This document shows, one piece after another, positions 48,995 to 63,901 of a stretch of DNA of 64,000 nt; positions within the stretch are counted from its first letter, which is position 1; each line of letters opens with the position of its first letter. The position numbers and the translations under genes are program-made. The DNA lies in the IMG/VR virus record IMGVR_UViG_3300032038_000047, positions 22,993-86,992 of that record. One strand, written 5' to 3'. The notes under the pieces were generated by a model. That model made no database searches. It saw only the letters and a program-made list of their open reading frames with translations, and had not been told where the DNA came from. The stretch comes from a virus. Its lineage: Duplodnaviria > Heunggongvirae > Uroviricota > Caudoviricetes.

Positions 48995-49205
48995 TTATAT
49001 GGGTATCGGCTTAGTTCAGCTAATGAAGGTTCCCCGACTTGTCATTGCGAGCCAGTGCGCACACTGGCGTGGCAATCCGTATCCTAAAGCGTTTCGTCAA
49101 CGGAAAAGAACGTATTGTCGCACCCGTGACGTCGGTTACTAGTGCGCAATGACACATAAGGGCAGATTATTGCATTTTAACCGACAAGGCTGATTAAAGC
49201 CGATA
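48995..49205 (+). ncRNA. Candidate structured RNA or leader with nested long-range inverted repeats
   Basis: GTATCGGCTT (48997) pairs with AAGCCGATAC (49197). GTCATTGCG (49043) pairs with CGCAATGAC (49147). There is an internal hairpin CCAGTG-CGCA-CACTGG. No ORF is present. It lies upstream of the gene at 49256. Confidence 0.3.
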
Positions 49206-49255
49206 CGCATTTTCTTTTATATTCTCAGCAAAACCCAAGCGAAAGGAGTTACACG

Positions 49256-49882
49256 ATGGCAAACGAACTGATCCCCTCCAACTCGAACAAGTACCACGAG
49301 GGGCAAAACAAGAAGAAGGAGAAGAAAGTCCGACAGGTGACATCCGGTTCAGTAAAGACCCGTCCAAGATCACCTGGAAGGAAGTTCTTCAATGCCTTCT
49401 TCAACAGCGACGCCAGGACCCTGAAGGAGTATCTGGTGGAGGACCAACTGATCCCAAGTATGAAGGAGATCGCCCTCCGCACCTTCGAGATGTGGTTATT
49501 TGGCGACTCGGCCAGGTCTTCCAGTAACGGAGGCAGGTCAAGAGGCTGGACGGAGAAAACCCAGTACAACAAAGCAGGTCGGGCCGCACGCAACAGCAGC
49601 TCCAGAAACTCCGAGAAAAGCAGGGCGCTGGCGAAGTTCAACCCGGAGATCGATGATATTTTTATGGAGACCCGTGGAGATGCCGAGCGGACTCTGGAGT
49701 ATCTGCAGTACCTCATCAGCGAATATGACGAGGTCACCGTGTCGGATTTGTATGAGTCTGTTGGCAAAACTGCGGACTGGTCTCTGAGCAATGTCGGTTG
49801 GCGTGACCTTGGGGATGCGTATGTGCAGCACACCCGGTACGGCTGGCGGCTGGAGCTTCCCTCTGTGGAGCAGCTGGACTGA
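49256..49882 (+). CDS. Hypothetical basic protein
   Basis: 208 aa with AAAGGAG RBS. Confidence 0.45.
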   Translation: MANELIPSNSNKYHEGQNKKKEKKVRQVTSGSVKTRPRSPGRKFFNAFFNSDARTLKEYLVEDQLIPSMKEIALRTFEMWLFGDSARSSSNGGRSRGWTEKTQYNKAGRAARNSSSRNSEKSRALAKFNPEIDDIFMETRGDAERTLEYLQYLISEYDEVTVSDLYESVGKTADWSLSNVGWRDLGDAYVQHTRYGWRLELPSVEQLD

Positions 49883-49899
49883 GAAAGGAGAATTATATT

Positions 49900-50208
49900 T
49901 TGCTGTTTGATAGTAAGACCGCTGCGGATGGTGAGTACATACCGACCACTACTGCGGCTCCTGACATTTCCCGGGAGGTTGAGTCTCGCAAAACTGACCT
50001 CTACGAGTGCGAGGATATTTACGTCTCCCATCCGCCCCATTACCAGAGCGAGAGCGGGCTGGAGGTTATTGACGTGATCGAGGCGTTCACCGAAGGTCTT
50101 GAGGGCATCGAGGCTGCGGACACCGCCAACATTATTAAGTACGCCTGCCGCTGGAAGAAGAAAAACGGCGCGCAGGATATTCAGAAGATCATCTGGTATG
50201 CAACACAT
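49900..50208 (+). CDS. DUF3310-family phage protein
   Basis: 'HPPHYQSESGLEVIDVIEAF...ANIIKYACRWKKK' matches the DUF3310 pattern (HPxHY...IE.IDVIEA...NAIKY..R). The start is probably TTG. Confidence 0.5.
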
Positions 50209-50242
50209 CTGTATAACAAATTACAAGAAAAGGAGAGCAACA

Positions 50243-51277
50243 ATGAACGTTAACTTCATCAAGAATTTTGCACTGGCTGGACGGAAAGTCGCCGGTGTGG
50301 TGGGCAGAAACCTGAAAGAGGCAAGCCCTGAAATTTTGCTCGTGGTCGGCGTGGCTGGTGTTGTGGTCAGCACGGTCATGGCCTGTCGGGCTACCAAGCA
50401 TATGGATGATATTCTCGACGAGCACAATGCGGAGCGTGAGGCTCTTGAGAATGACGAAATTGAAACTTCTGAGGATGAAAACCAGCTGGAAATCGAGGAA
50501 AACACTGATATTTCCAAACATTCTGGCGTTGATTCTAAGGCCCCTGCCGTTGCGTATAAGCGCGCTTTGTGGAGGACGTATTGTAAGACCGGATGGCGCT
50601 TTGTGAAGCTCTACGGGCCTTCTGTGGCCCTTGGAGCGGCTTCTCTGGCCTGTATATTCGCTTCGCACGGAATTCTTCGGAAACGTAACGCCGGACTCCT
50701 TGCGGCATACACCATGATGGAGCGCGGCTTCAGTGAGTATCGCAGCCGTGTCCGGGATATTCTCGGAGAGGAAGAAGAGGAGAAACTCCGGCTGGGAATG
50801 TCTGAAGAAGAATTTGAGGAGACAACTGTTGAAGAGGATGGGTCCGAGACAACGGTTCTGAAGAAAGGCCCAATCTTTGACCTGTCGAACTGCAGCCAGT
50901 ACGCAAGATATTATGATGCCTATAGTGTGTATGGCTGGGAGGGCGACGCGTATCAGGAGATGGTTCTCGACGGTGTGGAACGGTATGCCAACGACCGGCT
51001 GATTGCTCAGGACGTAGTGTTCCTGAATGAGGTCTATAAGGACCTGGATCTGCCTCTGTCCAGCGATGGTCAGCTTGCCGGCTGGTGCACGGGCGGTAAT
51101 GGTGACGGGCAGGTCATTATTAAGCGTATCAAGGGATATCGTAAGGTTAATCTTGATGGTATGGAGAGAATCATCCCGACAACGATTCTTGACTTTAATG
51201 TGGACGGCGACGTGCATCGGGTCCTGGATCTGCAGGATCAGCTTGGCGCCGCGGTCAGAAAGAGACTGGTGAAGTAA
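50243..51277 (+). CDS. Membrane-anchored protein, distant paralog 4 (N-terminal TM plus acidic linker)
   Basis: GAAAAGGAGAGCAACA-ATG. 'ILLVVGVAGVVVSTVMA' is a TM helix. The architecture resembles the 27262, 28184 and 46593 products. Confidence 0.45.
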   Translation: MNVNFIKNFALAGRKVAGVVGRNLKEASPEILLVVGVAGVVVSTVMACRATKHMDDILDEHNAEREALENDEIETSEDENQLEIEENTDISKHSGVDSKAPAVAYKRALWRTYCKTGWRFVKLYGPSVALGAASLACIFASHGILRKRNAGLLAAYTMMERGFSEYRSRVRDILGEEEEEKLRLGMSEEEFEETTVEEDGSETTVLKKGPIFDLSNCSQYARYYDAYSVYGWEGDAYQEMVLDGVERYANDRLIAQDVVFLNEVYKDLDLPLSSDGQLAGWCTGGNGDGQVIIKRIKGYRKVNLDGMERIIPTTILDFNVDGDVHRVLDLQDQLGAAVRKRLVK

Positions 51278-51279
51278 CA

Positions 51280-51915
51280 ATGCTGCAGAAAGCAATTATA
51301 TTTGGAGCTGGCCTGGTGGTCGGTGCCGGCGCTGCGATTCTTGCCCTCCGTGACTACTATGCGGAGAAGGAAGAGTACAACGTGGCGTCGGTAAAGGCTG
51401 CCTTGCAGGGCGACCGTTCCCTGATATTTGGGGAAGAACAGAAAGAAGAGCCGAGCGAGCCGGAAGTACCCGAGGTCCATGTGAATGCGGAGACGCTGGC
51501 GAATAAGACCTCCTACAACAGCCTCGGAGGGAAGCTGGCCAGAGACAGAGACCGGACACAGATGGGGCAGATCGCCGAGCATGAGAATTATATTCAGAAG
51601 CCCGATGAGGATGACGACCCGATTGAGGTGTACACGATCTCACCGGAGGCCTACGGTGCTCTGGGAGGCGGTTTCGAGAAGATCGAGGTTGAGTACTATG
51701 AGGGAAACGATACCCTTCTGGATGTAGGTGCGGAACGGGTCATTGATATTTCCAGTACCATCGGTCGGGAGGCTCTCGAACGGTTCGGCGAGTACGGAGA
51801 AAAAGATATTGTGTACGTTCGGAATGAGAAGCTGTGGACCGACTACTGTGTGAGTAGAAACCCAGGAAGTCTTACTGATATTTCAAAGTTCGCCCCTTCT
51901 CACGAGGAAACCTGA
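51280..51915 (+). CDS. Hypothetical protein with an N-terminal TM segment
   Basis: 211 aa. 'IIFGAGLVVGAGAAILAL'. Confidence 0.45.
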   Translation: MLQKAIIFGAGLVVGAGAAILALRDYYAEKEEYNVASVKAALQGDRSLIFGEEQKEEPSEPEVPEVHVNAETLANKTSYNSLGGKLARDRDRTQMGQIAEHENYIQKPDEDDDPIEVYTISPEAYGALGGGFEKIEVEYYEGNDTLLDVGAERVIDISSTIGREALERFGEYGEKDIVYVRNEKLWTDYCVSRNPGSLTDISKFAPSHEET

Positions 51916-51933
51916 AACGAGGGAGGTGATCCG

Positions 51934-52500
51934 ATGACCAGAGATGAGGTGGTTAAAGGATATTTTGATTGGCTGTTGGAAGCGGTAACCTGCGATCTGT
52001 ATGCGCCCGGAGACTACTGGTATCTGCTTGATATTCTGTTCGATACCGAGTTCTATTGGACGTTGGACAGAGACAGTAACCGAGCGGACGACGGCATGCA
52101 TCTGAGACTATTATATTCTCAGGAGCATCCGGTGGAGGGACATAAACTGCTGCGGTCCATGCCGGAGTTCTGCACGGTTCTTGAGATGCTGATTGCTCTG
52201 GCAAAGCGGTGTGAGAACGAGGTCATGTATGATCCGGATCAGGGAGATCGAACAGCTCTGTGGTTCTGGATTATGCTGGAGAACCTCGGTCTGACCAGTT
52301 ACAACGACCGGGCATTTCGGAGGAATCATCGGCGTGTGGATCAGTATGTAGATGATATTCTGACGACCTTCATGTATCGGGAGTTTGAGCCCGACGGAAC
52401 CGGCTCTATTTTCCGTGTGAAGAATGTTCAGGCGGACATGCGGGACACCGAATTGTGGTATCAGATGCAGTACTACGTGAATGAGAATTTTGATATTTAA
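51934..52500 (+). CDS. Hypothetical protein
   Basis: 188 aa with AGGGAGGTGATCCG RBS. Confidence 0.45.
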   Translation: MTRDEVVKGYFDWLLEAVTCDLYAPGDYWYLLDILFDTEFYWTLDRDSNRADDGMHLRLLYSQEHPVEGHKLLRSMPEFCTVLEMLIALAKRCENEVMYDPDQGDRTALWFWIMLENLGLTSYNDRAFRRNHRRVDQYVDDILTTFMYREFEPDGTGSIFRVKNVQADMRDTELWYQMQYYVNENFDI

Positions 52501-52850
52501 TGTGGCAAAATCGGGTGAAAAAACCGAAAATTTGCCCGGAACAGATGCCCAAAAATCCGTGCCGGTTTTGCCGAAAAAAGTGGCACAAAACCGGTTTGAA
52601 AGTGGCACGAAATTGCTAAAAGTTACAAATTGTAACCAAATCTTCACAAAACTCTGCCACTTTGCCACTTTTGTGCCGGTTTTGAAATCAAAAGTGGCAC
52701 GGCAAAAACCCTGTATTTGCAACGGTTTGCGGGCATCTGTGCCACTTTGCCACTTTTTTTTATTATCTAATTGTGAATAAAAAATTTAAATATATATAGA
52801 TAGGTCGGAAAAAGTGGAAAAGTGGCAGAAACGCAATTTTATACAGATTT
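52500..52850. repeat. Candidate replication origin: iteron cluster of AAAGTGGCA / TGCCACTTT plus an AT-rich region
   Basis: At least 10 copies of (A)AAGTGGCA(C/G/A) in both orientations. CCGGTTTTG and AAACCGGTTT repeats. The AT-rich stretch TTTTTTTTATTATCTAATTGTGAATAAAAAATTTAAATATATATAGATAGG. It lies immediately upstream of the replication gene. Confidence 0.5.
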
Positions 52851-52880
52851 TTAGTGACTACGGAAAGGAGGCCGTCATGT

Positions 52881-55800
52881 GTGGACTTTATGCTCGTTAG
52901 TGTCAAATCACTGAAGAAAGATGAGATGGTCATCTACCCCAAGTTCATCGTTACCAGCAGCAAGGATCTCATGGTGCGCGGTGGCGATTTTTATGCGGTT
53001 TGGGACGACGAGAAAGGCATGTGGTCAACTGATCAGGACGACGTCACCCGGCTGATTGATCACGAGCTGGATCAGTACAAAGAGGAACACGCAGACCTGG
53101 CAGGTGCCAAGGTCCTCCACATGTGGGACGCCGACTCCGGAATGATCGACAAATGGCTTAAGTATGTACAGAAGCAGCTGCGGGACAACTATCATCCTCT
53201 GGACGAGAAACTGATATTTGCAAACTCCCCGATTGACCGGATGGACTATGCCAGCAAACGTCTGCCCTATGCTCTGGAGAAAGCAGAGACTCCTGCGTAC
53301 GAGGAGCTCATCTCCACATTATATTCTCCGGAAGAGCGGAAGAAGATTGAGTGGGCAATCGGCTCGGTTGTAGCCGGGGACTCCAAGAAGATTCAGAAGT
53401 TTCTGGTGTTCTACGGATCCGCCGGAACGGGCAAGTCAACGATCCTGAACATCATCCAGCAGCTCTTTGACGGATATTGTACCAGCTTCGATGCAAAAGC
53501 GCTGGGGTCTTCATCGGGAGAGTTTGCACTGGAGCCATTCAAAAAGAACCCTCTGGTGGCGATTCAGCACGATGGCAACCTGAGCAGAATCGAGGATAAT
53601 ACCCGGCTCAACAGTCTGGTCTCCCATGAGGAGATGACCGTCAACGAGAAGTTCAAGTCTCAATACACAGCAAGATTTCAGGCAATGTTATTTATGGGCA
53701 CCAACACGCCGGTCCGGATCACTGACAGCCGGTCCGGCATTATTCGCCGGCTCATTGATGTTTCCCCAACTGGAAACACGGTTCCTCTCAAGCGGTACAA
53801 CCAGCTGAAGGAGCAGGTCAAGTTTGAGCTCGGCGGAATTGCCCAGCACTGTCTGGAGGTCTATGAGAGCGATAAGGACGCCTATGAGAATTATATTCCC
53901 ACCAGCATGATCGGAGCGACCAATGACTTCTACAACTTTGTGGAGGAGTACTATGAGGAGTTCATTGCGGAAGATCCGGTGTCTTTGAACTTTGCATGGA
54001 TATTGTACAAGCACTACTGCGACGACGCCAAAGTGTCCTACCCTTACGGAAAACGAGTGTTCAAGGAAGAGCTCAAAAATTACTTCCGGGAATTCGAGGA
54101 CCGCGGGAAGAACAAGAAGGGCGAACTGACCAGAAGTCTTTATCGAGGGTTCCGTATGGAGCGCATGGGATATTCTGTGCAGGCGGATGCGGAAAGTGGA
54201 CAGGCAGAAGCAGCCGATCAGGAGGCCGAGGTAAACCCTTCGGCGGAGGAGGCTGTTGACATTCCGCCTTGGCTGATATTTGACAAGACAGAATCGCTGT
54301 TTGACAAGGAGTATGGGGATTGCCCGGCGCAGTATGCCAACGACGAGGGGACGCCCTTGAAAAGCTGGGACAACGTCCAGACTACCCTTGCTGATATTTC
54401 CACAGACAAACTGCACTATGTACGAACGCCGCTGCAGCTGATCGTCATAGATTTCGACATCAAGAACGACTCTGGCCAGAAGTCCCTGGAGCGAAACATT
54501 GCGGCAGCTTCCAAGTGGCCTGCAACATACGCAGAGCTGAGCAAAAGCGGCCAGGGCATCCATCTCCATTATATTTACAACGGAGATGTGGCGGCTCTGA
54601 GCAGGGTCTACGACGACAATGTGGAGGTCAAGATATTCAACGGAAAGAGTTCCCTCCGAAGAATGCTGACCAGATGCAACGACAGACCCATCGCAACGAT
54701 CAATTCCGGTTTGCCATTGAAAGGAGATCGCAAAATGGTGAACCACAGAACCATCAAGACAGAAGCGGGACTCAGATCCATGATCAAGCGTAATCTGCAG
54801 AAGGAGATTGGTGGCTTCACAAAGGTCAGCGTGGATTTTATCTACAACGATCTGGAAGCGGCATACAATGCAGGATTCAAATACGATGTGAGTGATCTTC
54901 GTCCGGCTGTATTCAGTTTCGCCGGCAGGAGTCATAACAACAAAGACTACTGCACGAGACTGGTTCGCAAGATGAAGTTTAAGTCAGAGGACCCGGCGGA
55001 ACCGGAAGCTTATCCTGATATTTCAGAGGTCGACCTTGCCTATGCGGAAGAAGCGCAGAAGGCCGATACGGGAGAGGCCAAGGCGGACGGTCCACTGATA
55101 TTTTTCGACGTGGAGGTATTCCCGAACCTCTGCGTTATTGTGTATAAGGCTGCCGGCTGCCCGGCGGTGAAGATGATCAACCCGTCTGCGGAAGAGGTAC
55201 GGCAGCTTATGCGGATGCGGCTGGTGGGCTTCAACAACCTTGGGTACGACAATTATATTCTCTATGCCATTGTGCAGGGCTTCTCTGTGGCGCAGCTTTA
55301 CAAGCTTTCCCGTCGGCTTATTAACAACGAGCGAGTCGGCATGCGGGAAGCAAGGAATGTCTCCTACACGGATATTTTCGACTTCTCTGCTACAAAGCAG
55401 AGCCTGAAGAAGTGGGAGATCGCCCTGGATATTCACCATCAGGAGCTGGGTCTTCCATGGGACGAGCCGGTACCGGAGGAACTGTGGCCGAAAGTTGCCG
55501 AGTACTGCGTCAATGACGTGGTGGCAACGGAGGCGCTATTCTTCCATCAAAACGCTGATTGGACCGCGAGGCAGATCCTGGCGGATGTGGCGGACAAGAC
55601 CGTCAACGACACCACCAACACGCTTACCACTGCAATTATATTCGGCGGCAACCGCAATCCGCAGGGAGAATTCAACTATCGGGATATGGGAAAAATGCCC
55701 AGCGGCCATTCTGGACTAAAGAACTGGCCCGGTCTGGACTGTGATCCGGAGTTCACGGTGTTCGACGATCTCGGACGGCCGGTGTTCCCTGGATATTCTT

Positions 55801-57044
55801 TTACCTTCGATAAGGAGGCGAAAAAGAAGGTCAGCTTCTACAGAGGGGAAGATCCTAAGGAGGGCGGCTATGTATATGCCGAGCCCGGGATCTACTGGGA
55901 TGTGGCGCTGCTTGATATTGCGTCCATGCATCCGTCAAGCATCGTAGCGGAAGAACTGTTTGGCCCGATTTATACCGCTCGATTTAAGGAACTTCTGGAT
56001 GCCCGTATCGCCATCAAGCATAAGGACTTCGACAAAGCCCGGACAATGCTGGACGGCAAGCTGGCGCCTTATATTCAGAAGGTTATCGACGGTGAGATTA
56101 CGACCAAGGATCTGGCCTATGCCCTGAAGATTGCGATCAACTCGGTATACGGGCTGACTGCTGCCAACTTTGAGAACCCCTTCCACGACCCCAGGAATCA
56201 AGACAACATTGTGGCGAAACGAGGCGCGCTGTTCATGATCAACCTTAAACATGAGGTGCAGAGCAGAGGCTTTACAGTGGCCCATATCAAGACCGATTCC
56301 ATCAAGATTCCAAATGCCACGCCGGAGATCATCCAGTTCGTTACGGACTACGGAAAGCTGTATGGATATTCCTTCGAGCACGAGGCGACCTACAGCAAGA
56401 TGTGCCTGGTGAACGACGCTGTGTACGTGGCTCGTTACGCCGCCAAAGAGAAGTGTGAGGAGCTTTACGGATATATTCCGGGAGACAACTACGAGCACGG
56501 CGGCGACTGGACGGCCACCGGCACACAGTTCCAGGTTCCATATGTCTTTAAGACGCTCTTCAGCCATGAGCCAATCGAGTTCAAGGACATGTGCGAGACT
56601 AAGGCGGTCAAGACAGCATTATATTTGGACATGAACGAGAACCTTCCGGATGTGGAAGCGGAAGAGAAGGAACTGGTGAAGCTTAAGAAGAAGCTGGCCG
56701 ATGAAAAGAAGCCTCCTTCCGAGGCGGATCGGGCTGCGATTGAGCAGCGTGTCGCAAAGCTCTCGGTTGATATTCCGAAGGGGCACGATTACCAGTTCGT
56801 CGGAAAGGTCGGATGCTTCTGCCCGGTCAAAGCAGGTCTTGGCGCCGGCAAGCTGATGCGTCAGGGCGCCAATGGATATTCTGCTGTAGGCGGAACCACC
56901 GGCTACCGCTGGATGGAGGCCGAGAAGCTGGCTCAGACCCCAAACTGGGATCAGTACATTGACAAAACCTATTATGCAGCGATGGTTGACACCGCTGTGG
57001 AAGCTATTTCGAAATACGGAGACTTTGAAGAGTTCTCTGCATGA
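52881..57044 (+). CDS. Replication fusion protein: P4/D5-like primase with SF3 helicase, plus a C-terminal family-B DNA polymerase with proofreading
   Basis: Walker A 'VFYGSAGTGKSTIL' (D5/P4-type SF3 helicase). A prim-pol-like 'IVIDFDIKND...GQGIHLHYIY'. Exo I 'IFFDVEVFPN'. PolB motif A 'LDIASMHPSSI' (DxxSLYPS) and motif C-like 'VAHIKTDSIKI' (..DTDS). The start is GTG at 52881 or ATG at 52890. Confidence 0.7.
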   Translation: MDFMLVSVKSLKKDEMVIYPKFIVTSSKDLMVRGGDFYAVWDDEKGMWSTDQDDVTRLIDHELDQYKEEHADLAGAKVLHMWDADSGMIDKWLKYVQKQLRDNYHPLDEKLIFANSPIDRMDYASKRLPYALEKAETPAYEELISTLYSPEERKKIEWAIGSVVAGDSKKIQKFLVFYGSAGTGKSTILNIIQQLFDGYCTSFDAKALGSSSGEFALEPFKKNPLVAIQHDGNLSRIEDNTRLNSLVSHEEMTVNEKFKSQYTARFQAMLFMGTNTPVRITDSRSGIIRRLIDVSPTGNTVPLKRYNQLKEQVKFELGGIAQHCLEVYESDKDAYENYIPTSMIGATNDFYNFVEEYYEEFIAEDPVSLNFAWILYKHYCDDAKVSYPYGKRVFKEELKNYFREFEDRGKNKKGELTRSLYRGFRMERMGYSVQADAESGQAEAADQEAEVNPSAEEAVDIPPWLIFDKTESLFDKEYGDCPAQYANDEGTPLKSWDNVQTTLADISTDKLHYVRTPLQLIVIDFDIKNDSGQKSLERNIAAASKWPATYAELSKSGQGIHLHYIYNGDVAALSRVYDDNVEVKIFNGKSSLRRMLTRCNDRPIATINSGLPLKGDRKMVNHRTIKTEAGLRSMIKRNLQKEIGGFTKVSVDFIYNDLEAAYNAGFKYDVSDLRPAVFSFAGRSHNNKDYCTRLVRKMKFKSEDPAEPEAYPDISEVDLAYAEEAQKADTGEAKADGPLIFFDVEVFPNLCVIVYKAAGCPAVKMINPSAEEVRQLMRMRLVGFNNLGYDNYILYAIVQGFSVAQLYKLSRRLINNERVGMREARNVSYTDIFDFSATKQSLKKWEIALDIHHQELGLPWDEPVPEELWPKVAEYCVNDVVATEALFFHQNADWTARQILADVADKTVNDTTNTLTTAIIFGGNRNPQGEFNYRDMGKMPSGHSGLKNWPGLDCDPEFTVFDDLGRPVFPGYSFTFDKEAKKKVSFYRGEDPKEGGYVYAEPGIYWDVALLDIASMHPSSIVAEELFGPIYTARFKELLDARIAIKHKDFDKARTMLDGKLAPYIQKVIDGEITTKDLAYALKIAINSVYGLTAANFENPFHDPRNQDNIVAKRGALFMINLKHEVQSRGFTVAHIKTDSIKIPNATPEIIQFVTDYGKLYGYSFEHEATYSKMCLVNDAVYVARYAAKEKCEELYGYIPGDNYEHGGDWTATGTQFQVPYVFKTLFSHEPIEFKDMCETKAVKTALYLDMNENLPDVEAEEKELVKLKKKLADEKKPPSEADRAAIEQRVAKLSVDIPKGHDYQFVGKVGCFCPVKAGLGAGKLMRQGANGYSAVGGTTGYRWMEAEKLAQTPNWDQYIDKTYYAAMVDTAVEAISKYGDFEEFSA

Positions 57045-57063
57045 TATTTAGGAGGAATTAATT

Positions 57064-57600
57064 ATGGCTTACATTGACAACATTATTCTGCGGGACGTGA
57101 AGGTCATGTCCAAGAACTTCAGCGGCATGGAGAAGATCTATAATGGCCGCACCGTGAACACCAAGGGCAGCCGTAATTTCTGCCCGGAGCTGCCGGAAAA
57201 TCTGGCACTCCAGATGAAGGAGGAGGGCTGGAACGTCAAGCACACCAATCCTCAGGATCCGGACGAGCCCGTGCGCTATTATATTCAGGTGGCGCTTCAG
57301 TTCCGGGACCGGTACAACGAGCCCGTCCGCCCCAAGTTCCGTCCGAAGGTTGTTCGGGTGGACAGCCATGGGGATCATATTATGCTCAATGAGGACACGG
57401 TAGAAGAATTGGACGATGACGAGATCATCAAGGCCAACATCAAGATCCGCGGTCGTGAGTATGAGCCCGGCAAGATCAAGGCCTATGCCAAGGTGCTCTA
57501 CGCCTGGGTGGACGAAGCAGATCCCTTCGCTAACGACTTCCGGGAGGCGGAAGACTTCCCCGGCGCTGATGATGAGCTGGACGACTTGCCCTTTGATTGA
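57064..57600 (+). CDS. Hypothetical acidic protein
   Basis: 178 aa with TTAGGAGGAATTAATT RBS. Confidence 0.45.
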   Translation: MAYIDNIILRDVKVMSKNFSGMEKIYNGRTVNTKGSRNFCPELPENLALQMKEEGWNVKHTNPQDPDEPVRYYIQVALQFRDRYNEPVRPKFRPKVVRVDSHGDHIMLNEDTVEELDDDEIIKANIKIRGREYEPGKIKAYAKVLYAWVDEADPFANDFREAEDFPGADDELDDLPFD

Positions 57601-57684
57601 TATTTGAGAGCACGCTTTTTGCGTAACCCTGCCCCTGATGCCCTGGCCGGTGTCAGGGGCTTTACTGATATTTAGGAGGCGCTT

Positions 57685-58917
57685 GTGAGCATCTCACTGT
57701 ATGAGCACCAACAGCAGGCGCTTGAGAAACTGAGGAACGGCTCGGTTCTCTGCGGCGGGGTTGGGTCTGGAAAGTCCCGGACGGCCATTGCCTATTACTT
57801 TGTGAAAGAATGCGGCGGCCGGATCGACGGAAAGGCCCATGGATATTCTGAGAATTACGTTCCGATGGAGAATCCGAAGGATCTGTACATCATCACCACC
57901 GCCCAGAAGCGGGATAAGAAGGAGTGGGAGGCGGAGTGTATTCCATTCCTTCTCATCGGCTCTCCTGATATTTGTCCCTACAGCATCAAGGTGACCGTCG
58001 ATTCCTGGAACAACATCGCCAAGTACAAGGATGTGACGAACAGCTTCTTTATATTTGACGAACAGCGGGTGGTCGGCTATGGCAAGTGGTCCAAAACCTT
58101 CATTCGGATCTCACGGCGGAATCACTGGATCCTGCTCAGTGCCACGCCCGGCGACACCTGGATGGACTACATCCCGGTGTTCATCGCCAATGGATATTAC
58201 CGTAACAAAACAGACTTTGTGAACACTCATGTGGTCTATGCGGCATATTCCAAGTTCCCAAAGGTGGAACGGTATATGGGGGAGCGGCATTTGGAAAAAC
58301 TGCGGGAGCAGATCCTTGTCAACATGGACTACCACAAACCGGCCCAGTCGCACCACATTGATATTCTGACCGAGTACGACCGGGAGACGTTCAAGGACGT
58401 GATCCGCCGCAGGTGGAATATTTACGAGGACAAGCCCATCGTCAACAGCGCCGAGCTGTTCTATCTGATGCGTAAAGTGGTGAACAGCAGCCCGGCCAGA
58501 GCCGAGGCCATCCGGAAGCTGGCGGATGCCCATCCGAAGGCAATTATATTCTACAACTTCGACTACGAGCTGGAGATTCTCCGGGCGATTCCCTATGCGG
58601 ACGGAACCGTGGTCGCCGAATGGAATGGCCACCGGCATGAGCAGATCCCAAAGGCGGAGCGCTGGGTATATCTGGTGCAGTACTCCGCCGGAGCCGAAGG
58701 ATGGAACTGCATCGAGACCGACACCACCATCTTCTACTCTCAGAACTATTCTTACAAGATCCTGGTTCAGGCGTCCGGACGGATCGACCGGCTGAACACG
58801 CCGTACAAAGACTTATATTTTTACCATCTCAAGTCAAGAGCCTGGATCGACGCGGCCATTGCACGGGCCCTGAAAGCCAAGAAAAACTTCAACGAGCGCT
58901 CTTACAAGCTCCATTGA
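57685..58917 (+). CDS. DEAD/DEAH-like superfamily-2 DNA helicase
   Basis: Motif I 'GGVGSGKS', motif II 'FDEQ' and motif III 'SATPG'. GTG start with TTAGGAGG RBS. Confidence 0.65.
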   Translation: MSISLYEHQQQALEKLRNGSVLCGGVGSGKSRTAIAYYFVKECGGRIDGKAHGYSENYVPMENPKDLYIITTAQKRDKKEWEAECIPFLLIGSPDICPYSIKVTVDSWNNIAKYKDVTNSFFIFDEQRVVGYGKWSKTFIRISRRNHWILLSATPGDTWMDYIPVFIANGYYRNKTDFVNTHVVYAAYSKFPKVERYMGERHLEKLREQILVNMDYHKPAQSHHIDILTEYDRETFKDVIRRRWNIYEDKPIVNSAELFYLMRKVVNSSPARAEAIRKLADAHPKAIIFYNFDYELEILRAIPYADGTVVAEWNGHRHEQIPKAERWVYLVQYSAGAEGWNCIETDTTIFYSQNYSYKILVQASGRIDRLNTPYKDLYFYHLKSRAWIDAAIARALKAKKNFNERSYKLH

Positions 58918-58920
58918 TAT

Positions 58921-58948
58921 TCCGCAAGAAATACAACGGCTATAATAG
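58921..58948 (+). promoter_or_regulatory. Copy of the phage promoter motif upstream of the VRR-NUC gene
   Basis: TCCGCAAGAAATACAACGGCTATAATAG. Confidence 0.4.
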
Positions 58949-59005
58949 GAGAGATAGGAGATGCGCCTTACATCTCATTTATTTTTGAGTCGAGGAGGCT
59001 CTTCT

Positions 59006-59302
59006 ATGCGGGAAAACCAGTTTCAAGCGAGACTTATCAAGGACATCAAGAAGCGCTTGCCCGGTTGCATCGTGCTGAAGAATGACCCGGATTATATTCA
59101 GGGCATTCCGGATCTCACGGTGCTGTACGGGAACCGATGGGCGTTTCTGGAGTGCAAACGCTCCGAAACAGAGTCCCATCAACCGAATCAGGACTATTAT
59201 ATTTCTACGGCCGATGCAATGTCATTCGGTCGTTTTGTTTTTCCCGAAAACAAGCAGGAGGTACTTGATGAACTTCAACAATCACTACAATCTGATTGGT
59301 AA
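59006..59302 (+). CDS. VRR-NUC domain nuclease
   Basis: 'GIPDLTVLYGNRWAFLECKRSE' contains the PD-(D/E)xK core typical of VRR-NUC. Confidence 0.6.
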   Translation: MRENQFQARLIKDIKKRLPGCIVLKNDPDYIQGIPDLTVLYGNRWAFLECKRSETESHQPNQDYYISTADAMSFGRFVFPENKQEVLDELQQSLQSDW

Positions 59303-59834
59303 GCACGCATTCCTGGGAGCCAGCAACTACCACTGGCTCAACTACGACATGGAGAAATTGATATCCACTTACCGAAACCGGCAGGCGGTTCAGCGGGGAA
59401 CCGAGCTCCATGCCTTTGCCAAGAATGCGATTGATCTGAGAATCAAGCTCCCACGCAACAAACAGACCCTCAGCATGTATGTGAACGATGCCATTGGCTA
59501 TCGGATGACTCCGGAGCAGGTGCTTTGTTATTCCGACAACTGCTTTGGAACCGCCGACGCCATCAGCTATAACGAGAATCAGAAGCTTTTGCGTATTCAT
59601 GACCTGAAAACCGGTGCCACGCCGGCTTCCATGAACCAGCTTCTTATTTACATGGCCATGTTCTGCCTGGAGTACGATATTGACCCGTCCAAGATTGACG
59701 CTGAGCTCCGCATCTACCAGAGCGACGAAGTGAACGTTTTGAATCCGACGACGGATGATATTATGCCGGTCATTGAGGCCATGATTGACGCCGATGAATG
59801 CATCTCACAATTACAAGCGGAGGGTAGAGACTGA
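59268..59834 (+). CDS. Hypothetical protein
   Basis: AGCAGGAGG RBS with ATG at 59268, in frame with the longer ORF at 59082. Confidence 0.45.
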   Translation: MNFNNHYNLIGKHAFLGASNYHWLNYDMEKLISTYRNRQAVQRGTELHAFAKNAIDLRIKLPRNKQTLSMYVNDAIGYRMTPEQVLCYSDNCFGTADAISYNENQKLLRIHDLKTGATPASMNQLLIYMAMFCLEYDIDPSKIDAELRIYQSDEVNVLNPTTDDIMPVIEAMIDADECISQLQAEGRD

Positions 59835-62563
59835 TGGACACAATGTTTACTGATATTTTGGACTTGCCGTTCCCGGATGACCAACTTGCGCACTACGGAA
59901 CACCTCGGCACAGCGGACGCTATCCCTGGGGTTCCGGTAAAAATCCGCAGCGCCATAAGAACTTTCTGACCATGGATGCGGAGCTCAAGAAGCAGGGCCT
60001 CAGTGAAAAAGAGCGGGCTCAGGCTATGGGCATGTCCACCACCGAACTGCGGGCCATGAAATCTATTGCCAGCGACGCGCACAAGGCGGAAGTGGCAGCA
60101 CAGGTGATTAAACTCCGCAAGACAGGTATGTCCTTTGACGCCATTGCACAGGAAACCGGTGTTTCAGCCTCCAGCGCCAGAAATATGGTAAAAGAGGATT
60201 ATGCCATTAAGCTTAGTTCCGACCGCAAGCTGGCTGAAGTGCTCAAAGAGCAGGTGGAACAGCACCCGTATCTGGATATTGGCGCCGGTGTCGAGCGACA
60301 GCTCGGCGTATCCGACACGAAGCTGAAAACAGCGGTCAAGATTCTGGAGCAGGAAGGATATTCGAAGAAGTACCTGAAAGTCGAGCAGGCCGGAAATCCC
60401 GGACAGTTTACGACGGTTATGGTGCTGGCCAAGGACAACGTGACCTATGAGGAGCTCAGGGAACACAAAGACCAGATTATTTCTCCCCAAGGCGTATTTT
60501 CCAATGACGGCGGAAATACCTTTCTTGGCATCAAACCGCCGGTCAGCATCGATTCCAAACGTATTGATATTTGCTATGCCGAGCAGGGCGGAACCGAGAA
60601 AGACGGCCTGATTGAGATCCGTCCCGGTGTCCCTGATATTTCCCTTGGCGATAACCGCTACGCCCAGGTCCGTATTGCGGTCGACGGAACGCACTATCTG
60701 AAGGGCATGGCCGTCTACAACGACAAACTTCCCGACGGTGTTGATATTCGCTTCAATACCAACAAGGATTCTTCCAAATCCAAGATGGAAGTTCTCAAAG
60801 AGATGAACACCATCAAAGCAACCGGCGAAGTGGATATGGATAATCCCTTTGGAGCCACTATCCGTCAGTATGAATACGAGGATGAAAAAGGCAATAAACA
60901 TTTGTCCGCCATCAATATCGTAAATAACGATGAAGACTGGGCCAAATGGTCCAAAACTCTGTCCTCTCAGATGTTGTCGAAGCAGTCTCCGGCCTTGGCC
61001 AAGCAGCAACTGGATATTACGTACGATCGCAAGAAGCAGGAATTCAACGAGATCATGGCGCTCACAAACCCGGTTCTCAAGAAACATCTGCTGGAGTCTT
61101 TTGCCGACGGTTGTGACTCCGCTGCTGTGGACCTGAAGGCCGCCGCCCTTCCGAGACAGGCTACCAAGGTTCTTATTCCAATGCCGAGCCTCAAAGACGA
61201 CGAGATTTTCGCCCCGTCCTACAACAACGGCGAGCAGGTCGTGCTGATCCGATATCCTCATGGCGGAACCTTTGAAATTCCGACGCTGACTGTAAACAAT
61301 AAGGCAAAAGAGGGCATTGACACCATTGGCAAGGACGCCCGAAACGCGGTTGGTATCAACGCCAAAGTGGCGGAGCGGTTATCCGGCGCCGATTTTGACG
61401 GCGATACGGTTACGGTTATTCCCATTGTCGGACAGAAGATCAAGACCAGCAACGCTTTGGAAGGCCTGAAGGACTTTGACCCGAAGCATGAGTACCGCGC
61501 CTACGAAGGGATGCCCAAGACCTGCAAGGAGAACGGTTTCCAGAAGCAGATGGAGATGGGCAAGGTCTCCAATCTGATCACCGACATGACCATTCGGGGT
61601 GCTACAGAGGATGAAATCGCCAGAGCGGTCCGGCATTCCATGGTCGTCATCGATGCGGAGAAGCACAACCTGGACTGGAAGCGTTCCTACCAGGAGAACC
61701 GGATTGCCGAGCTGAAAGAGAAGTATCAGGGCGGCGCCAACAAGGGTGCCTCCACGCTTATTTCGCAGGCAAGCTCCGATACCAGAGTGAATGAACGCAA
61801 ATCCGGCTACAAGATTGACCCCGATACCGGTGAGAAGATCTATACCGAGACCGGCCGAACCTACAAGACCGAGAAGGTCATGAAGGACGGCAGCGTCAAA
61901 ACCGAGATTCATAAAGCCCAGGAGAAGTCCACAAAGATGGCGGAAGCCTCTGATGCGTTCGAGCTCTCCTCCGGCACCAGAATCGAGAATGTGTACGCGA
62001 CGCATGCCAACAAGCTTAAAGCTTTGGCCAACGAAGCCCGCAAAGCATACGTGGCTACCGAAAACCCCAAACGGAACCCAACTGCGGCAAAAGAGTATGC
62101 GCCCGAGGTATCCTCTCTGCTGGCAAAACTGAACATTGCGCTGAAGAATGCGCCGAATGAGCGAAAAGCACAGCTTGTGGCCAGTAAAGTGGTTGAGACG
62201 AAAATTGAGCACAATCCAGAGCTGAAAGATGATGACGAGCATTTGAGCCGCGTCAGACGCCAGGCTCTTGCGGAAGCCCGTGCCAGAAGCGGAGCTCTGA
62301 GCAGGAAAGAGCGCAATATCGATATCACAGACCGGGAATGGGAAGCCATCCAGGCCAACGCCATCAGCCCGACCCAGCTCAAGACCATTTTATCCAATAC
62401 GGACCTTGACAAGCTGAAGGAACGCGCCACTCCGCGCAATAACAAGTCCCTGAACAGTGCCGCATTATCAAGAGCCAGATCGCTGCTGAACAGGGGCTAC
62501 ACATGGGCTGAAGTTTCCGAGCAAGTCGGGATCTCTGTCAGCACGTTGCAGAAGCAGATCTGA
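59834..62563 (+). CDS. Large (909 aa) hypothetical protein with several HTH-like segments
   Basis: N-terminal HTH-like repeats ('GLSEKERAQAMGMSTTELRAMKS', 'GMSFDAIAQETGVSASSARNMVKE') and a C-terminal 'YTWAEVSEQVGISVSTLQKQI'. No ATPase motifs, so it is not a terminase. It lies directly upstream of the CTATTGATATTT iteron array. Confidence 0.5.
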   Translation: MDTMFTDILDLPFPDDQLAHYGTPRHSGRYPWGSGKNPQRHKNFLTMDAELKKQGLSEKERAQAMGMSTTELRAMKSIASDAHKAEVAAQVIKLRKTGMSFDAIAQETGVSASSARNMVKEDYAIKLSSDRKLAEVLKEQVEQHPYLDIGAGVERQLGVSDTKLKTAVKILEQEGYSKKYLKVEQAGNPGQFTTVMVLAKDNVTYEELREHKDQIISPQGVFSNDGGNTFLGIKPPVSIDSKRIDICYAEQGGTEKDGLIEIRPGVPDISLGDNRYAQVRIAVDGTHYLKGMAVYNDKLPDGVDIRFNTNKDSSKSKMEVLKEMNTIKATGEVDMDNPFGATIRQYEYEDEKGNKHLSAINIVNNDEDWAKWSKTLSSQMLSKQSPALAKQQLDITYDRKKQEFNEIMALTNPVLKKHLLESFADGCDSAAVDLKAAALPRQATKVLIPMPSLKDDEIFAPSYNNGEQVVLIRYPHGGTFEIPTLTVNNKAKEGIDTIGKDARNAVGINAKVAERLSGADFDGDTVTVIPIVGQKIKTSNALEGLKDFDPKHEYRAYEGMPKTCKENGFQKQMEMGKVSNLITDMTIRGATEDEIARAVRHSMVVIDAEKHNLDWKRSYQENRIAELKEKYQGGANKGASTLISQASSDTRVNERKSGYKIDPDTGEKIYTETGRTYKTEKVMKDGSVKTEIHKAQEKSTKMAEASDAFELSSGTRIENVYATHANKLKALANEARKAYVATENPKRNPTAAKEYAPEVSSLLAKLNIALKNAPNERKAQLVASKVVETKIEHNPELKDDDEHLSRVRRQALAEARARSGALSRKERNIDITDREWEAIQANAISPTQLKTILSNTDLDKLKERATPRNNKSLNSAALSRARSLLNRGYTWAEVSEQVGISVSTLQKQI

Positions 62564-62629
62564 TTTCACTGATATTCTCAGAATACTTGTGAAAAGGGCT
62601 TTTGCACCTGAAAAAGCATCCAACAGCAA

Positions 62630-63135
62630 AACGGCGCTATTGATATTTGCATATGCTTCGGATGTCACTCGCATTTAGACGTTAAAACGGCGCAAACCGG
62701 TCCAAATGGGCTATTGATATTCTCCCGAAGGATTCCTGGCCTGTTTGGACCTATTTGGGCCTGTTTACGGTATGTGTGTATGCGTCCATTGATGTTCTTG
62801 CGAAGGCCCTTTAGAGAAGAGGCTGTAGTACGGCTGTATATGGGGTGCCTTTTTATTGATATTTGAACGCTGTCGCTTGATCTGATCCTACAAAACCGCA
62901 ACGGAGCTCTATGTTGTTTGAAATCAATATAACGGGCCTGGCTATTGATATTTGAGTCCCCATAAGAGACGATTCTGCCGTCTATCAGAAGCGTTTTCCG
63001 TACTCTAAACTGGAATTCTGCGCGCACGGCTATTGATATTTAGAGGGGGTACCCTTGGCTGTCAGCAGCACAGATAAAAGCGTTTGCGCTTATGCTTGCT
63101 GTGTTAGCTGCCACCCCATGTATTGATATTTGAAT
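62630..63135 (+). repeat. Iteron array of 6-7 spaced copies of (GG)CTATTGATATTT
   Basis: Copies at about 62636, 62712, 62786 (degenerate CCATTGATGTTC), 62858, 62944, 63032 and 63120. The spacing is roughly 75-90 bp. The region is non-coding. Confidence 0.6.
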
Positions 63136-63658
63136 TGTTTTTTATGCGTTCCTTTTATCGAATACACGGCTGCCTGCTTAAAATAACAGGTCCATTTGGC
63201 AGCTTGCTCGCTCCTAAGACGCCTCTCCTTTTGCTTTATTGCAATAATGCGCATGCTGTTTGAAGCAGAGCAGCTTTTGCGTCCATCCTACTGCATTTAA
63301 AACAAGGCCATCAGCATTGGCCAGTGACCCATGCTATAACATGGAACGTACAGTCATAGTCAAAAGGCATAGTTCTTAACTATGTTTGCAGCCTTGCACC
63401 CAATCAACCACATCACAACAAGAGATTCATACATGCACACTTGCATACTGTTTAACTCTTGAAAAGGTTGTGCTCTTTGATTCATACAATCTTGTAAGCG
63501 TTCACAGTTTGTTGAATGCAGCAAGACAAGCACGCTGATACCCTGACAATGTGACGCAAACAGAAAGCGACGCACCACAATGTTGTCACTCTTTGCATGT
63601 CCTATTATAGTATAGGTTCTTATCATACGTTCGCTGCTACAATTAAGGAGGTCTTATC

Positions 63659-63901
63659 ATGCGCGAAGTGGCGCTTACAACTACAGACAATCCTTACAAC
63701 CCTTTTACACAGTTCGATGCATGGGATTCTTGGGATCGACTCATGGGTTATGAAACATGCGCTTTACTTGGCCGCATTGCCAAGACCTCACCCGAACTCA
63801 GTCCTGCTGATCAAGCAATTGAAGTTGAACATGCGATTGATGCGATCGTTGACCTGAACCCTTTAGGTGTGTACAAGAAGGTTGTAAGAGATGACGAGTA
63901 A
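63659..63901 (+). CDS. Small hypothetical protein
   Basis: 80 aa with a strong RBS (TTAAGGAGGTCTTATC-ATG). Confidence 0.45.
   Translation: MREVALTTTDNPYNPFTQFDAWDSWDRLMGYETCALLGRIAKTSPELSPADQAIEVEHAIDAIVDLNPLGVYKKVVRDDE

Follow-up and report, generated by a model that had tools for sequence, protein, structure and literature searches.

A one-strand 8-nt word in the early arm of a gut phage genome and its non-coding array near the right terminus

Background

What reads a series of short direct repeats set in a gene-free gap (62564-63658) near the right end of a gut phage genome? The window, meaning the whole stretch of DNA analysed here, is the final 64 kb of an 87-kb linear gut-phage genome. 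Members of its clade abound, free or as prophages, in the Lachnospiraceae and Oscillospiraceae of gut and rumen. The original prediction described six good copies and one degenerate copy in direct orientation at regular spacing, lying in DNA without coding capacity after the gene for a 909-aa HTH protein. It proposed a pac, parS or iteron-origin function and linked the repeat core to a motif enriched across the genome.

Results

The array in the right-end gap

The exact word TATTGATATT occurs seven times in the 64-kb window, always on the plus strand, against an expectation of 0.16, and none of 100 shuffles reached seven. Six of these occurrences form the array (62638, 62712, 62854, 62943, 63031 and 63121), and the seventh lies at 60562, within the 909-aa polymerase gene. 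When up to two mismatches were allowed, the 13-mer array consensus CTATTGATATTTG gave ten matches (1.69 expected), six of them in the array. The predicted copies are all present: six exact ones and the degenerate CCATTGATGTTCT, to which we add one short copy, every one on the plus strand (Table 1). The degenerate copy splits a 142-bp gap into spacings of 75 and 67 bp. With it and the short copy counted, start-to-start spacings are 71, 74, 75, 67, 89, 88 and 90 bp, and the predicted regularity is borne out at 67–90 bp. The median array spacing is 90 bp, and arrays in relatives are spaced at 40–280 bp. Tandem Repeats Finder, the kind of check suggested with the prediction, reported no tandem repeat in the array, which rules out that an ~89-bp unit was duplicated in tandem; what recurs across the array is the short word alone, and the spacers share no sequence kinship.

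Table 1. Window coordinates of the array copies and associated features
Feature	Position	Strand	Remark
KKATATTY zone	17558..63131	+	~169 of 181 plus-strand copies
Two-HTH chimera	23615-24607		only one in the window
Single-chain two-barrel QDE-1-like RNA polymerase, 909 aa	59834..62563	+	
Short-type copy TGATATTC	62570..62577	+	7 nt past polymerase stop codon
Array copy 1, CTATTGATATTTG	62637..62649	+	
Array copy 2, CTATTGATATTCT	62711..62723	+	
Degenerate copy CCATTGATGTTCT	62786..62798	+	2 mismatches; read from sequence
Array copy 3, TTATTGATATTTG	62853..62865	+	
Array copy 4, CTATTGATATTTG	62942..62954	+	
Array copy 5, CTATTGATATTTA	63030..63042	+	
Array copy 6, GTATTGATATTTG	63120..63132	+	
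Terminator-like hairpin and T-run, 3' of array	63255..63284	+	consensus match only
Sigma-70-like promoter match TTGTCA-17-TATAGT, ahead of small terminal gene	63583..63611	+	consensus match
Last gene, 80 aa, PHROG 4303, conserved	63659..63901	+	
Conserved G/C hairpin, physical right end of genome	63959..64000	.	source contig stops 2 nt beyond 64000

The gap is non-coding, as had been claimed: on the source contig the gene caller placed nothing in the interval from the polymerase gene to the 80-aa gene, and six overlapping ORFs in the gap gave no credible PHROG or Pfam match. The stretch downstream of the array, described as AT-rich and non-coding, is non-coding and only weakly AT-rich, with a GC content of 0.40–0.455 against 0.44–0.465 in the array and 0.49 genome-wide. 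The array spacers are unstructured (fold z-scores of −1.35 to +0.9) and match no Rfam family and no tRNA, so they offer no RNA explanation, and an array of small RNAs or tRNAs is ruled out.

A polar word across the early arm

The predicted link between the repeat core and a genome-wide motif proved much stronger than claimed. KKATATTY occurs 181 times on the plus strand of the window and three times on the minus strand, establishing both the existence of the word and its polarity. Within genes we counted 150 copies, using all three frames, where synonymous-codon shuffling predicts 25.7 ± 4.6. The longer form TTGATATT occurs 23 times on the plus strand and never on the minus strand (2.75 expected). 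Thirteen of the 14 mapped in-gene copies of TTGATATT share one frame, which suggested a peptide or codon (Asp-Ile) artefact. This was ruled out by synonymous shuffling, which yields 2.9 rather than 13, and by the use of all frames by KKATATTY; the frame bias arises because one frame would read TGA and another the rare ATA codon. The terminal array is the full-consensus end of KKATATTY, and ~170 further copies are dispersed.

The location of the word is equally distinct. Its density is 7–20 per 4 kb in the zone given in Table 1 versus 2–4 per 4 kb in the tail and structural part (1–16 kb), and the early (replication) arm, 47 kb long in this genome, is dense and the structural arm sparse in the window and in every relative spanning both arms. 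Copies of KATATT are 85% intragenic, with intergenic enrichment of only ~1.7-fold. The polarity of the word tracks the genome axis rather than local gene direction: the minus-strand integrase gene, a single gene, carries three copies on the plus strand and none on the minus strand. We also looked for a strand flip in inverted gene blocks, but the minus-strand copies in L039 belong to a simple AT repeat and are uninformative, leaving the integrase gene as the sole usable case. Short gaps between copies are few: 1.2% in the window are below 60 bp versus 19% expected at random, and 37 pooled genomes contain 81 gaps below 50 bp versus 318 expected. The spacing is footprint-like.

The genome end and the upstream polymerase

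The genome is that of a linear 87-kb siphophage with defined ends, probably of cos type, that carries a tyrosine integrase gene on the minus strand (PHROG 1, E = 8e-51). Independent contigs of relatives also stop at the right-end G/C hairpin. A PHROG 4303 member occupies the genome-end position in L002, and the other relatives examined have a small gene after the polymerase gene. A packaging boundary had been predicted nearby, and the right end indeed lies at window position 64000, with PHROG 4259, an HNH endonuclease and the large terminase just beyond it in relatives. Immediately 5' of the polymerase gene, the early arm carries genes for an exonuclease of the Cas4 family, for a helicase and for a protein that anneals single strands, and the replication module near the array includes a primase/polymerase, an SSB-like protein, a helicase and nucleases.

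The 909-aa protein does carry HTH domains, one N-terminal (~aa 87-120, sigma-4/resolvase type) and one C-terminal (~aa 885-909), but it is more than an HTH protein. It matches PHROG 4291 over its full length (E = 0) and contains GADFDGD at aa 518-524, whose aspartates, glycine and alanine are invariant over 17 and 25 homologues. Profile comparison with the PDB yielded only a weak match, between the DFDGD loop and a phage beta' chain, so we tested the fold instead. The model (pLDDT 80.7) returned QDE-1 (E = 4e-10), RDR2 and P74-26 gp62 as top Foldseek hits. These results confirm a two-barrel (QDE-1/YonO-like) polymerase with a DxDGD loop and a double-psi beta-barrel core, and a reported HHpred result agrees with this identity (bioRxiv 10.1101/842583).

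Selection on single copies and turnover of arrays

Scans of IMG/VR, GTDB genomes and metagenomes gave no close relative above 58% identity; relatives at 70–73% identity came from a search of 5.8 billion proteins. Single copies of the word are under purifying selection. Between the window and L185, 91% of word sites are intact versus 46–57% of control 8-mers, and between the window and L183, 35–46% versus 9–12%, an excess with p from 1e-5 to 5e-8 in these comparisons. In the arrays of L007 and L050, the motif columns are 92% identical and the spacers 79% (p = 0.004).

Arrays as such are evolutionarily labile. Terminal clusters are found in five of the five nearest genomes, so that the expected conservation in related phages holds for the feature, while the sequence itself is not alignable, and many remoter relatives lack such clusters. 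These clusters comprise 2–11 copies, some reversed, before or after the small gene. Their position and orientation vary in L183, L186 and L187, and long-type copies are reversed in the terminal non-coding clusters of L183 (n = 3) and L187 (n = 5). The array is absent in L003–L006, which have the same terminal hairpin and small terminal gene, and in most of 67 genome-derived relatives. In relatives with arrays, these are invariably found to the right-end side of the terminus, within ~0.2–1.4 kb of the right end. The one-strand orientation of the word holds clade-wide, with a weak strand bias in true prophages in isolate genomes. Phages from many host genera share its ATATT core, with lineage-specific flanks (TTGATATT, AAGATATT, GTCATATT, TTATATT and GGATATT).

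We compared the presence of protein families with that of the motif by all-vs-all BLAST over 101 loci; the best association (p ~2e-4) is confounded by phylogeny and arm coverage. As a binder of the word we also considered the window's chimeric HTH + sigma-4 + alpha-CTD protein and rejected it, for it has no full-length homologue in sequenced phages; the Faecalibacterium phage FP_oengus shares the word and is absent among the chimera matches listed.

Discussion

Possible stoperator-like sites

We tentatively favour, at somewhat less than even confidence, the reading that the word constitutes stoperator-like asymmetric protein-binding sites and that the array is a high-occupancy pad at the arm's end. 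We infer protein binding, a candidate binder and an effect of binding as follows. A phage-encoded, sequence-specific DNA-binding module would sit on the sites, the first candidate being the HTH domains of the upstream polymerase. Given the asymmetry of the sites, its effect on enzymes travelling along the DNA would differ by orientation, and the transcribed arm would keep only the orientation compatible with rightward transcription. At the arm's end, free of coding constraint, sites could be packed at 60–90 bp, about the closest spacing commonly seen, and the dense pad may mark or insulate the end of the arm before the genome terminus. On this reading the cluster occupies the untranslated tail with which the last early operon ends, the polymerase gene lying 5' of it and the last gene and hairpin 3'. 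In favour of bound protein stand the polarity and excess of the word, selection at single sites, the footprint-like spacing, the restriction to one arm and the lack of an RNA explanation for the spacers.

Among the closest known systems is that of the cluster A mycobacteriophages. There, monomers of L5-type (gp71-type) repressors bind more than 20 asymmetric 13-mers that are oriented with transcription, and the stoperator effect is lost upon inversion (PMC9283540). Both systems use short, asymmetric, dispersed sites in one orientation relative to transcription, and the reader of the orientation-dependent stoperators is one polypeptide chain that has a pair of DNA-binding domains (PMC9283540). 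Lineage-specific flanks on a shared ATATT core are as expected from a co-evolving protein reader, and the reversed copies in relatives' clusters fit a site in duplex DNA better than a signal read on one strand. Several points count against the stoperator-like reading: the core of 8 nt is short for a specific HTH site and compares with a 13-mer; stoperators are intergenic, and 85% of the word's copies lie inside genes; stoperators flip with the direction of transcription, and the copies in the oppositely transcribed integrase gene do not; the gene-content association is weak and confounded; and the polymerase also occurs in relatives that lack the word. The word further differs in its copy number (~180 versus 20–36) and in being limited to one arm. 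Its weak bias in bona fide prophage relatives is another difference, and argues against a role in silencing during lysogeny.

A possible signal for the phage polymerase

We regard it as possible, though unlikely, that the word serves the phage's own two-barrel polymerase as a signal. One form would be a short promoter like those of the T7, phiKZ/AR9 or P23-45 polymerases, which would make the array a multi-promoter pad. Alternatively, the word could be a pause or termination signal, hairpin-independent and orientation-dependent like the T7 class II terminator, with which the array would halt early-arm transcription before the genome end. The confirmed fold, an array that begins 7–70 nt past the polymerase gene, and the restriction of a polar word to one transcription arm all suit such a signal. 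So do the many intergenic copies 0–12 nt 5' of a Shine-Dalgarno sequence, the motif TGA that serves as stop codon in four genes, the word as U-tract of three promoter-proximal leader hairpins, and the terminator-like hairpin 3' of the array. There is precedent as well. SPO1 late promoters have GATATT as their −10 element (PMC3601020). The two-barrel polymerases of P23-45 work with short conserved promoter motifs, and a conserved terminator motif clusters near a genome end. At the T7 concatemer junction, the class II signal consists of 7 nt on the non-template strand and depends on orientation. T7 promoters, some of them near the genome ends, the T7 class II terminator and the P23-45 motifs, like the present word, belong to phages with their own polymerase and are short polar words on the non-template strand, with one near the right genome end.

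Against this, KKATATTY has ten-fold more copies than those signals, and its mostly intragenic placement with slight intergenic enrichment speaks against a promoter or terminator; the DNA polymerase gene of 4.2 kb alone holds ~19, and selection for internal promoters or terminators there is implausible. No partner or conserved flanking element was found at any fixed offset from the word, which also excludes an SPO1-type bipartite promoter (CGTTAGA-N17-19-GATATT). A better promoter candidate is a separate ~25-nt box of the form CGCG-A5-ACA-N5-TATAAT, which is intergenic and low-copy and accompanies the polymerase across phyla; the promoter of YonO is likewise yet to be determined (PMC5467207). 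The reversed array copies in some relatives also speak against a polymerase signal. Finally, Mudcat, 1706, L010 and L017 have the same polymerase and lack the word, and reading of the word by the polymerase, if it occurs, would therefore be a subclade innovation.

Possible signals read from the right end

It is quite unlikely that the word acts as a Chi-like polar signal on the 3'-ending strand for a helicase-nuclease that gains access to the DNA through its free right end, be it host AddAB/RecBCD or the phage Cas4-type exonuclease with a helicase. The array would then be the first protection beside the end and the dispersed copies repeated chances of recognition. We judged orientation by Chi recognition and the rule that governs it relative to lambda cos; by this rule the word is rightly oriented for right-end entry, because the plus strand ends 3' there. 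As with Chi and KOPS, the word is 8 nt long, strongly one-stranded, over-represented, oriented relative to a DNA end and blind to gene boundaries; its copies are indifferent to gene orientation too. The constant proximity of arrays to the right end, their dispensability and variable copy number, and the exonuclease, helicase and annealing protein encoded next door agree with this account. The known Chi sequences of which we are aware are host-specific and G-rich, whereas the word is AT-rich and its core is common to phages of many host genera. The word also ends at the structural arm in every genome and, unlike Chi or KOPS, is clustered in arrays, and the reversed long-type copies of L183 and L187 would be useless. 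The L. lactis Chi is GCGCGTG; Lactococcus phage 1706, of the same supercluster, contains no copy of it and no polar word, a point against the Chi-like account that is uninformative for Clostridia hosts.

Another idea, which we consider improbable, is that the word, once single-stranded, forms a strand-specific code for priming or loading. The plus strand would be exposed by resection from the free right end, through the Cas4-type exonuclease, helicase and annealing protein encoded just 5' of the polymerase gene. On that strand the QDE-1-like polymerase would find KKATATTY and deposit RNA primers or RNA:DNA hybrids every 100–300 nt, with the terminal array as start zone. The polymerase's fungal homologue carries out RNA synthesis on single-stranded DNA with RPA and a helicase. 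If true, this would make a transcription-type enzyme a sequence-specific primase in recombination-driven phage replication.

Possible origin, packaging, RNA and partition functions

The functions first proposed for the repeats fit poorly, given relatives without the array (L003–L006) and its varying copy number, orientation and position. An iteron-type lytic origin, in which an initiator binds the direct repeats and opens adjacent AT-richer DNA, is very unlikely. As at the lambda origin and plasmid iterons, direct repeats adjoin a replication module, with slightly AT-richer DNA 3' of them, and the repeats are under some purifying selection. Yet the units lie ~60–140 bp apart with unrelated spacers, where iterons are contiguous at ~20 bp, and the AT shift is small. 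The array is missing in L003–L006 and most prophage relatives and its position relative to the small gene varies. No replication-initiator annotation was seen among the genes scanned, neighbours of the array included, and the same word is dispersed ~170 times.

Little credence likewise attaches to a packaging accessory, whether small-terminase sites or a cosQ-like signal that makes an incoming motor halt and cleave at the nearby end. Lambda cosB R sites, SPP1 pacL/pacR and cosQ are non-coding repeats within ~1 kb of the packaging cut site, and here the physical end lies 0.9–1.4 kb from the array. The relatives' packaging module begins just beyond that end, their arrays are always on the right-end side of the terminus, and polar copies would suit a signal read by a one-way motor. 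An essential signal should, however, be conserved, and L003–L006 keep the hairpin and small gene without the array; in L004 the sequence runs beyond the hairpin and reaches the PHROG 4259 gene, with which the packaging module starts. A better candidate for the terminus site is the conserved G/C hairpin, at which independent contigs stop. Unlike the known terminase repeats and cosQ, moreover, the array in the window is separated from the terminus by a gene, and its word is dispersed genome-wide, which leaves copies over 47 kb unaccounted for.

An RNA-level signal KKAUAUUY, for example endoribonuclease entry sites that shorten early mRNA life, with the array in a 3' untranslated region 5' of a protective terminator, is most improbable. 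It would suit such a signal that the word covers one transcription arm evenly and that the array follows the last stop codon and precedes a terminator-like hairpin; RNase E prefers RN|WUU, which AU|AUU fits. The array copies, however, show a DNA-like pattern of additional conserved bases (CTATT..G), any reversed copy in a relative's array would go unread, and we know of no precedent for selection of such strength on decay sites. A centromere-like parS array partitioning a plasmid-like prophage, for which direct repeats in non-coding DNA are the one argument, has next to no chance of being correct: no ParA/ParB annotation was seen among the proteins scanned, the phage carries a tyrosine integrase and its relatives are integrated prophages, and the array is dispensable in relatives.

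Conclusions

The literature that we searched contained no description of this one-strand 8-nt word. Its presence on one strand at ~180 selected positions means that a machine reads half of the genome directionally, at a grain of 100–300 bp, in a clade whose polymerase is related to eukaryotic RNA-silencing enzymes. The array provides a ready-made, putatively high-affinity probe for binding assays. Naming the reader of the word would either give this polymerase family its first recognition code or reveal a new kind of polar marking of phage genomes.

The array and the right end of the genome

The gap 3' of the gene for the 909-aa protein holds a cluster of direct repeats, the array (table). In the 64-kb window, TATTGATATT occurs exactly seven times against 0.16 expected; six of these copies lie in the gap, and the seventh within the upstream polymerase gene. 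The 13-nt array consensus, CTATTGATATTTG, consists of an 8-nt core extended by a 5' CTAT and a 3' G; the sequence upstream of it is GC-rich. The original prediction of six good copies and one degenerate copy was borne out, with a short-type copy in addition. Its direct orientation also held; it gave a spacing of roughly 75-90 bp, and the eight sites, degenerate and short copies included, are spaced at 71, 74, 75, 67, 89, 88 and 90 bp. Tandem Repeats Finder, one of the checks of the kind proposed with it, reported no tandem repeat; the spacers are unrelated and the short word alone recurs. As predicted, the array lacks coding capacity: none of the ORFs in the gap could be credibly assigned to a family, and gene calling on the source contig predicted no gene there. 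The DNA 3' of the array is shifted towards AT as claimed, but mildly (GC 0.40-0.455 vs 0.49 overall).

The 87,012-bp contig, whose last 64 kb form the window, ends 2 nt past window position 64000, its end falling within a G/C hairpin. Three independent contigs (L005, L006, L183) also end at this hairpin, which is internal in L004, L007 and L058. In contigs that go on, it is followed by a conserved stretch (...AAAATTCTCCGGAGG...) and then by packaging genes in the order PHROG 4259 (small-terminase position), HNH endonuclease and large terminase. The hairpin region is likely the cos region. All isolated relatives with defined ends have the polymerase gene as the last large gene, and a ~85-aa gene separates it from the physical end. 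Here the order is VRR-Nuc-like nuclease, Cas4-type exonuclease, polymerase, array, terminator-like hairpin, sigma-70-like promoter, 80-aa gene and terminal hairpin; a tape-measure gene lies at the start of the window. The 80-aa protein lacks any Pfam domain; the related L002 also has a PHROG 4303 member at this position, and the other relatives examined have a small gene after the polymerase gene.

Coordinates of features in the window and in related genomes
Feature	Position	Strand	Remarks
tRNA-like stretch ...GGAGGTTCAACCCCTCC...	about 17360-17420		just upstream of integrase, past box 17327
Tyrosine integrase	17968-19038	-	PHROG 1, E = 8e-51
330-aa chimera	23615-24607	+
PHROG 2152 paralogues	27214-28167, 28184-29158, 46593-47396, 50099-51277
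Polymerase gene	59834-62563	+	909 aa
Gap without genes	62564-63658
Short-type copy TGATATTC	62570	+	7 nt 3' of polymerase stop codon
Exact copies of TATTGATATT, start positions	62638, 62712, 62854, 62943, 63031, 63121	+
Degenerate copy CCATTGATGTTCT	62786-62798	+	occupies single long gap of array
Terminator-like hairpin	63255		3' of array
Sigma-70-like promoter	63583-63611		5' of small terminal gene
Last gene, 80 aa, PHROG 4303	63659-63901	+	conserved
G/C hairpin GGAGGGGG-N-CCCCCTCC	63959-64000		physical right end; conserved in relatives
~25-nt box, window	17327, 19907, 24688, 24978, 27192, 29552, 40186, 46281, 48534, 58923
~25-nt box, Mudcat	L053:26670/27120/28082/29251, L054:2007/25497
~25-nt box, most loci	about 9050-9090
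Box with hairpin/T-run	27192-27245, 29552-29605, 19907-19960; L003:9053, L058:7247/7320
Box AATTCAAAATGGGAGG, window	3706, 11317, 15535, 16234, 20253, 20780, 22856
Terminal cluster, window			7 forward + 1 degenerate; 5' of small gene
Terminal cluster, L186			11 forward
Terminal cluster, L187			~10 forward + 5 reversed; 3' of small gene
Terminal cluster, L183			2 forward + 3 reversed long-type copies
Terminal cluster, L185			at least 2 forward + 1 reversed; contig incomplete

A polar word across the window

Unbiased k-mer scoring returned TGATATTT with 54 copies on the + strand, none on the - strand and 4.8 expected, and related words likewise. The array core is this genome-wide enriched motif, as had been claimed: in its generalised form, KKATATTY, the word occurs 181 times on + and 3 times on -. 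Genes hold 150 copies, compared with 25.7 +/- 4.6 expected from synonymous-codon shuffling, and these occupy all three reading frames, so the signal is one of nucleic acid and not a peptide effect. Across the minus-strand integrase gene the copies are still on +, so polarity tracks the genome axis and not the coding strand. Genome-wide conservation is confined to 8 nt, and no spaced partner element was found. The tail/structural arm (1-16 kb) holds 2-4 copies per 4 kb, the early arm (17.5 kb to the array) 7-20 per 4 kb, and intergenic enrichment is only ~1.7-fold. Copies avoid one another, with 1.2% of gaps below 60 bp where 19% are expected at random. The array is the end of this genome-scale polar word system; by itself it would be an ordinary-looking repeat cluster.

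Among relatives, low-GC members of the clade commonly carry a one-strand [G/T]ATATT word; they include IMG/VR contigs, FP_oengus, and prophages from Lachnospiraceae and Oscillospiraceae MAGs and isolates. The 5' flanks of the word differ by lineage (TTG, AAG, GTC, TT, GG). The early arm is dense and the structural arm sparse in all word-carrying relatives, and gaps below 50 bp number 81 vs 318 expected in 37 pooled genomes. The word is absent from Arthrobacter phage Mudcat, Lactococcus phage 1706 and high-GC contigs, where the same polymerase is present. Single sites show selection: between the window and the related genome L185 (87% nucleotide identity), 91% of word sites are intact vs 46-57% of control 8-mers; for L183 (69% identity) the figures are 35-46% vs 9-12% (p 1e-5 to 5e-8 for these tests).

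Terminal clusters occur in all five nearest genomes and in the remoter L002, L007/L050, L012/14/15, L056, L058, L059 and L072; there is none in L003-L006, close kin of L007, or in most prophage relatives. In an aligned pair of diverged arrays, motif columns are 92% identical vs 79% for spacers (p = 0.004). Array spacings across relatives have a median of 90 bp without a single period.

The upstream polymerase and promoter-like boxes

Calling the upstream 909-aa product an HTH protein was correct but incomplete. It has an HTH domain at each end, the N-terminal one akin to sigma region 4 and resolvase HTHs, and is an RNA polymerase. A match to PHROG 4291 ("RNA-dependent RNA polymerase"; E = 0) spans the whole protein, which carries GADFDGD, with catalytic residues invariant across 17 and 25 homologues. 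When its AlphaFold2 model (pLDDT 80.7, pTM 0.66) was compared with solved structures, QDE-1 ranked top (E = 4e-10, probability 1.0), followed by plant RDR2, P74-26 gp62 (a Thermus-phage non-virion polymerase) and then multisubunit beta' chains. Koert et al. had already proposed polymerase activity for this family from an HHpred match; a term search of that paper gave no hit for "repeat" or "promoter" (bioRxiv 10.1101/842583). All five words inside the polymerase gene fall in its first 910 nt (59851-60742); the last 1.8 kb has none, an unusually long motif-free run for the early arm.

A ~25-nt box, (T)CGCG-A5-W-ACA-N5-TATAAT-R-GAG, has 84 copies on the gene strand against 2 on the opposite one, in 62 of 136 loci, and is common to Mudcat, whose host is of a different phylum, and Clostridia-associated relatives. 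One positionally conserved copy (window 58923) lies ~0.9 kb 5' of the polymerase gene, ahead of the nuclease-exonuclease-polymerase operon. The box is a candidate family-specific promoter. Within ~5-35 nt 3' of the box there is often a short hairpin with a T-run (e.g. GAACC-UACG-GGUUC followed by UGAUAUUUUU). The layout is that of a promoter-proximal attenuator, similar to lambda pR'-tR', and hints at antitermination control. In phage 1706 (L188), a single strand carries all 10-11 copies of TATAGTAGA, a sequence that corresponds to the -10 part of box variant CTATAGTAGAG (L022, L029, L052); 1706 thus appears to have the box in common but not the polar 8-mer. Another box confined to one strand, AATTCAAAATGGGAGG, immediately precedes gene starts in the late/lysis region; it may serve as a late promoter or in translation initiation. 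FP_oengus has TCAAAATGGA ~8 times.

Elsewhere, a 330-aa chimera joins an XRE-type HTH (aa 13-68), sigma-70 region 4 (aa 148-197) and an RNA polymerase alpha-subunit C-terminal domain (aa 246-305, E = 1.5e-17); no full-length homologue was found in GenBank phages by tblastn. Four PHROG 2152 paralogues are dispersed in the early arm; a Pfam scan of one of them (27214) gave a match to DUF6353, and at least this one begins just 3' of a ~25-nt box (27192). The GGAGGTTCAACCCCTCC stretch resembles the 3' part of a tRNA gene and may therefore be the attP core; ARAGORN found no complete tRNA.

Possible functions of the word

The word system, classed here with polar dispersed recognition sites, fails the defining tests of every family considered. 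Any reading has to account for strict polarity, even coverage with near-neighbour exclusion, early-arm restriction, disregard of gene boundaries, selection at single sites, lineage-specific flanks and terminal clusters in which reversed copies are tolerated. We tentatively favour, at less than an even chance, putative asymmetric sites at which a phage-encoded factor would bind duplex DNA. The sites would act like stoperators, whose orientation relative to moving polymerases matters (PMC9283540), and the array would serve as a high-occupancy pad where the arm ends, before the terminus. The polymerase's own HTH domains would be the obvious candidate reader.

That the word is instead a signal for the polymerase itself, whether as promoter or as T7 class II-like terminator, is unlikely. 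It is probably not the polymerase's promoter: the long, intergenic, low-copy ~25-nt box co-occurs with the polymerase, whereas the 8-mer does not. A Chi-like end-protection signal is rather improbable, and single-strand readings taken together, for instance sites for priming or for T5-like nicks, slightly more so. The predicted pac or terminase-small-subunit site fails as an essential site, since the array is absent from relatives with the same terminal hairpin, itself the better terminus site; an accessory role in packaging is quite doubtful. Equally doubtful is the proposed iteron origin, given the wrong spacing, an array dispensable in relatives, the weak AT shift and no initiator recognised beside it. 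RNA-level decay sites are very improbable, and a small-RNA or tRNA array is ruled out. The suggested centromere-like parS has next to no likelihood, with an integrase present and no Par annotation among the proteins scanned.

Literature searches found no description of this polar word system, the function of which is directly testable.
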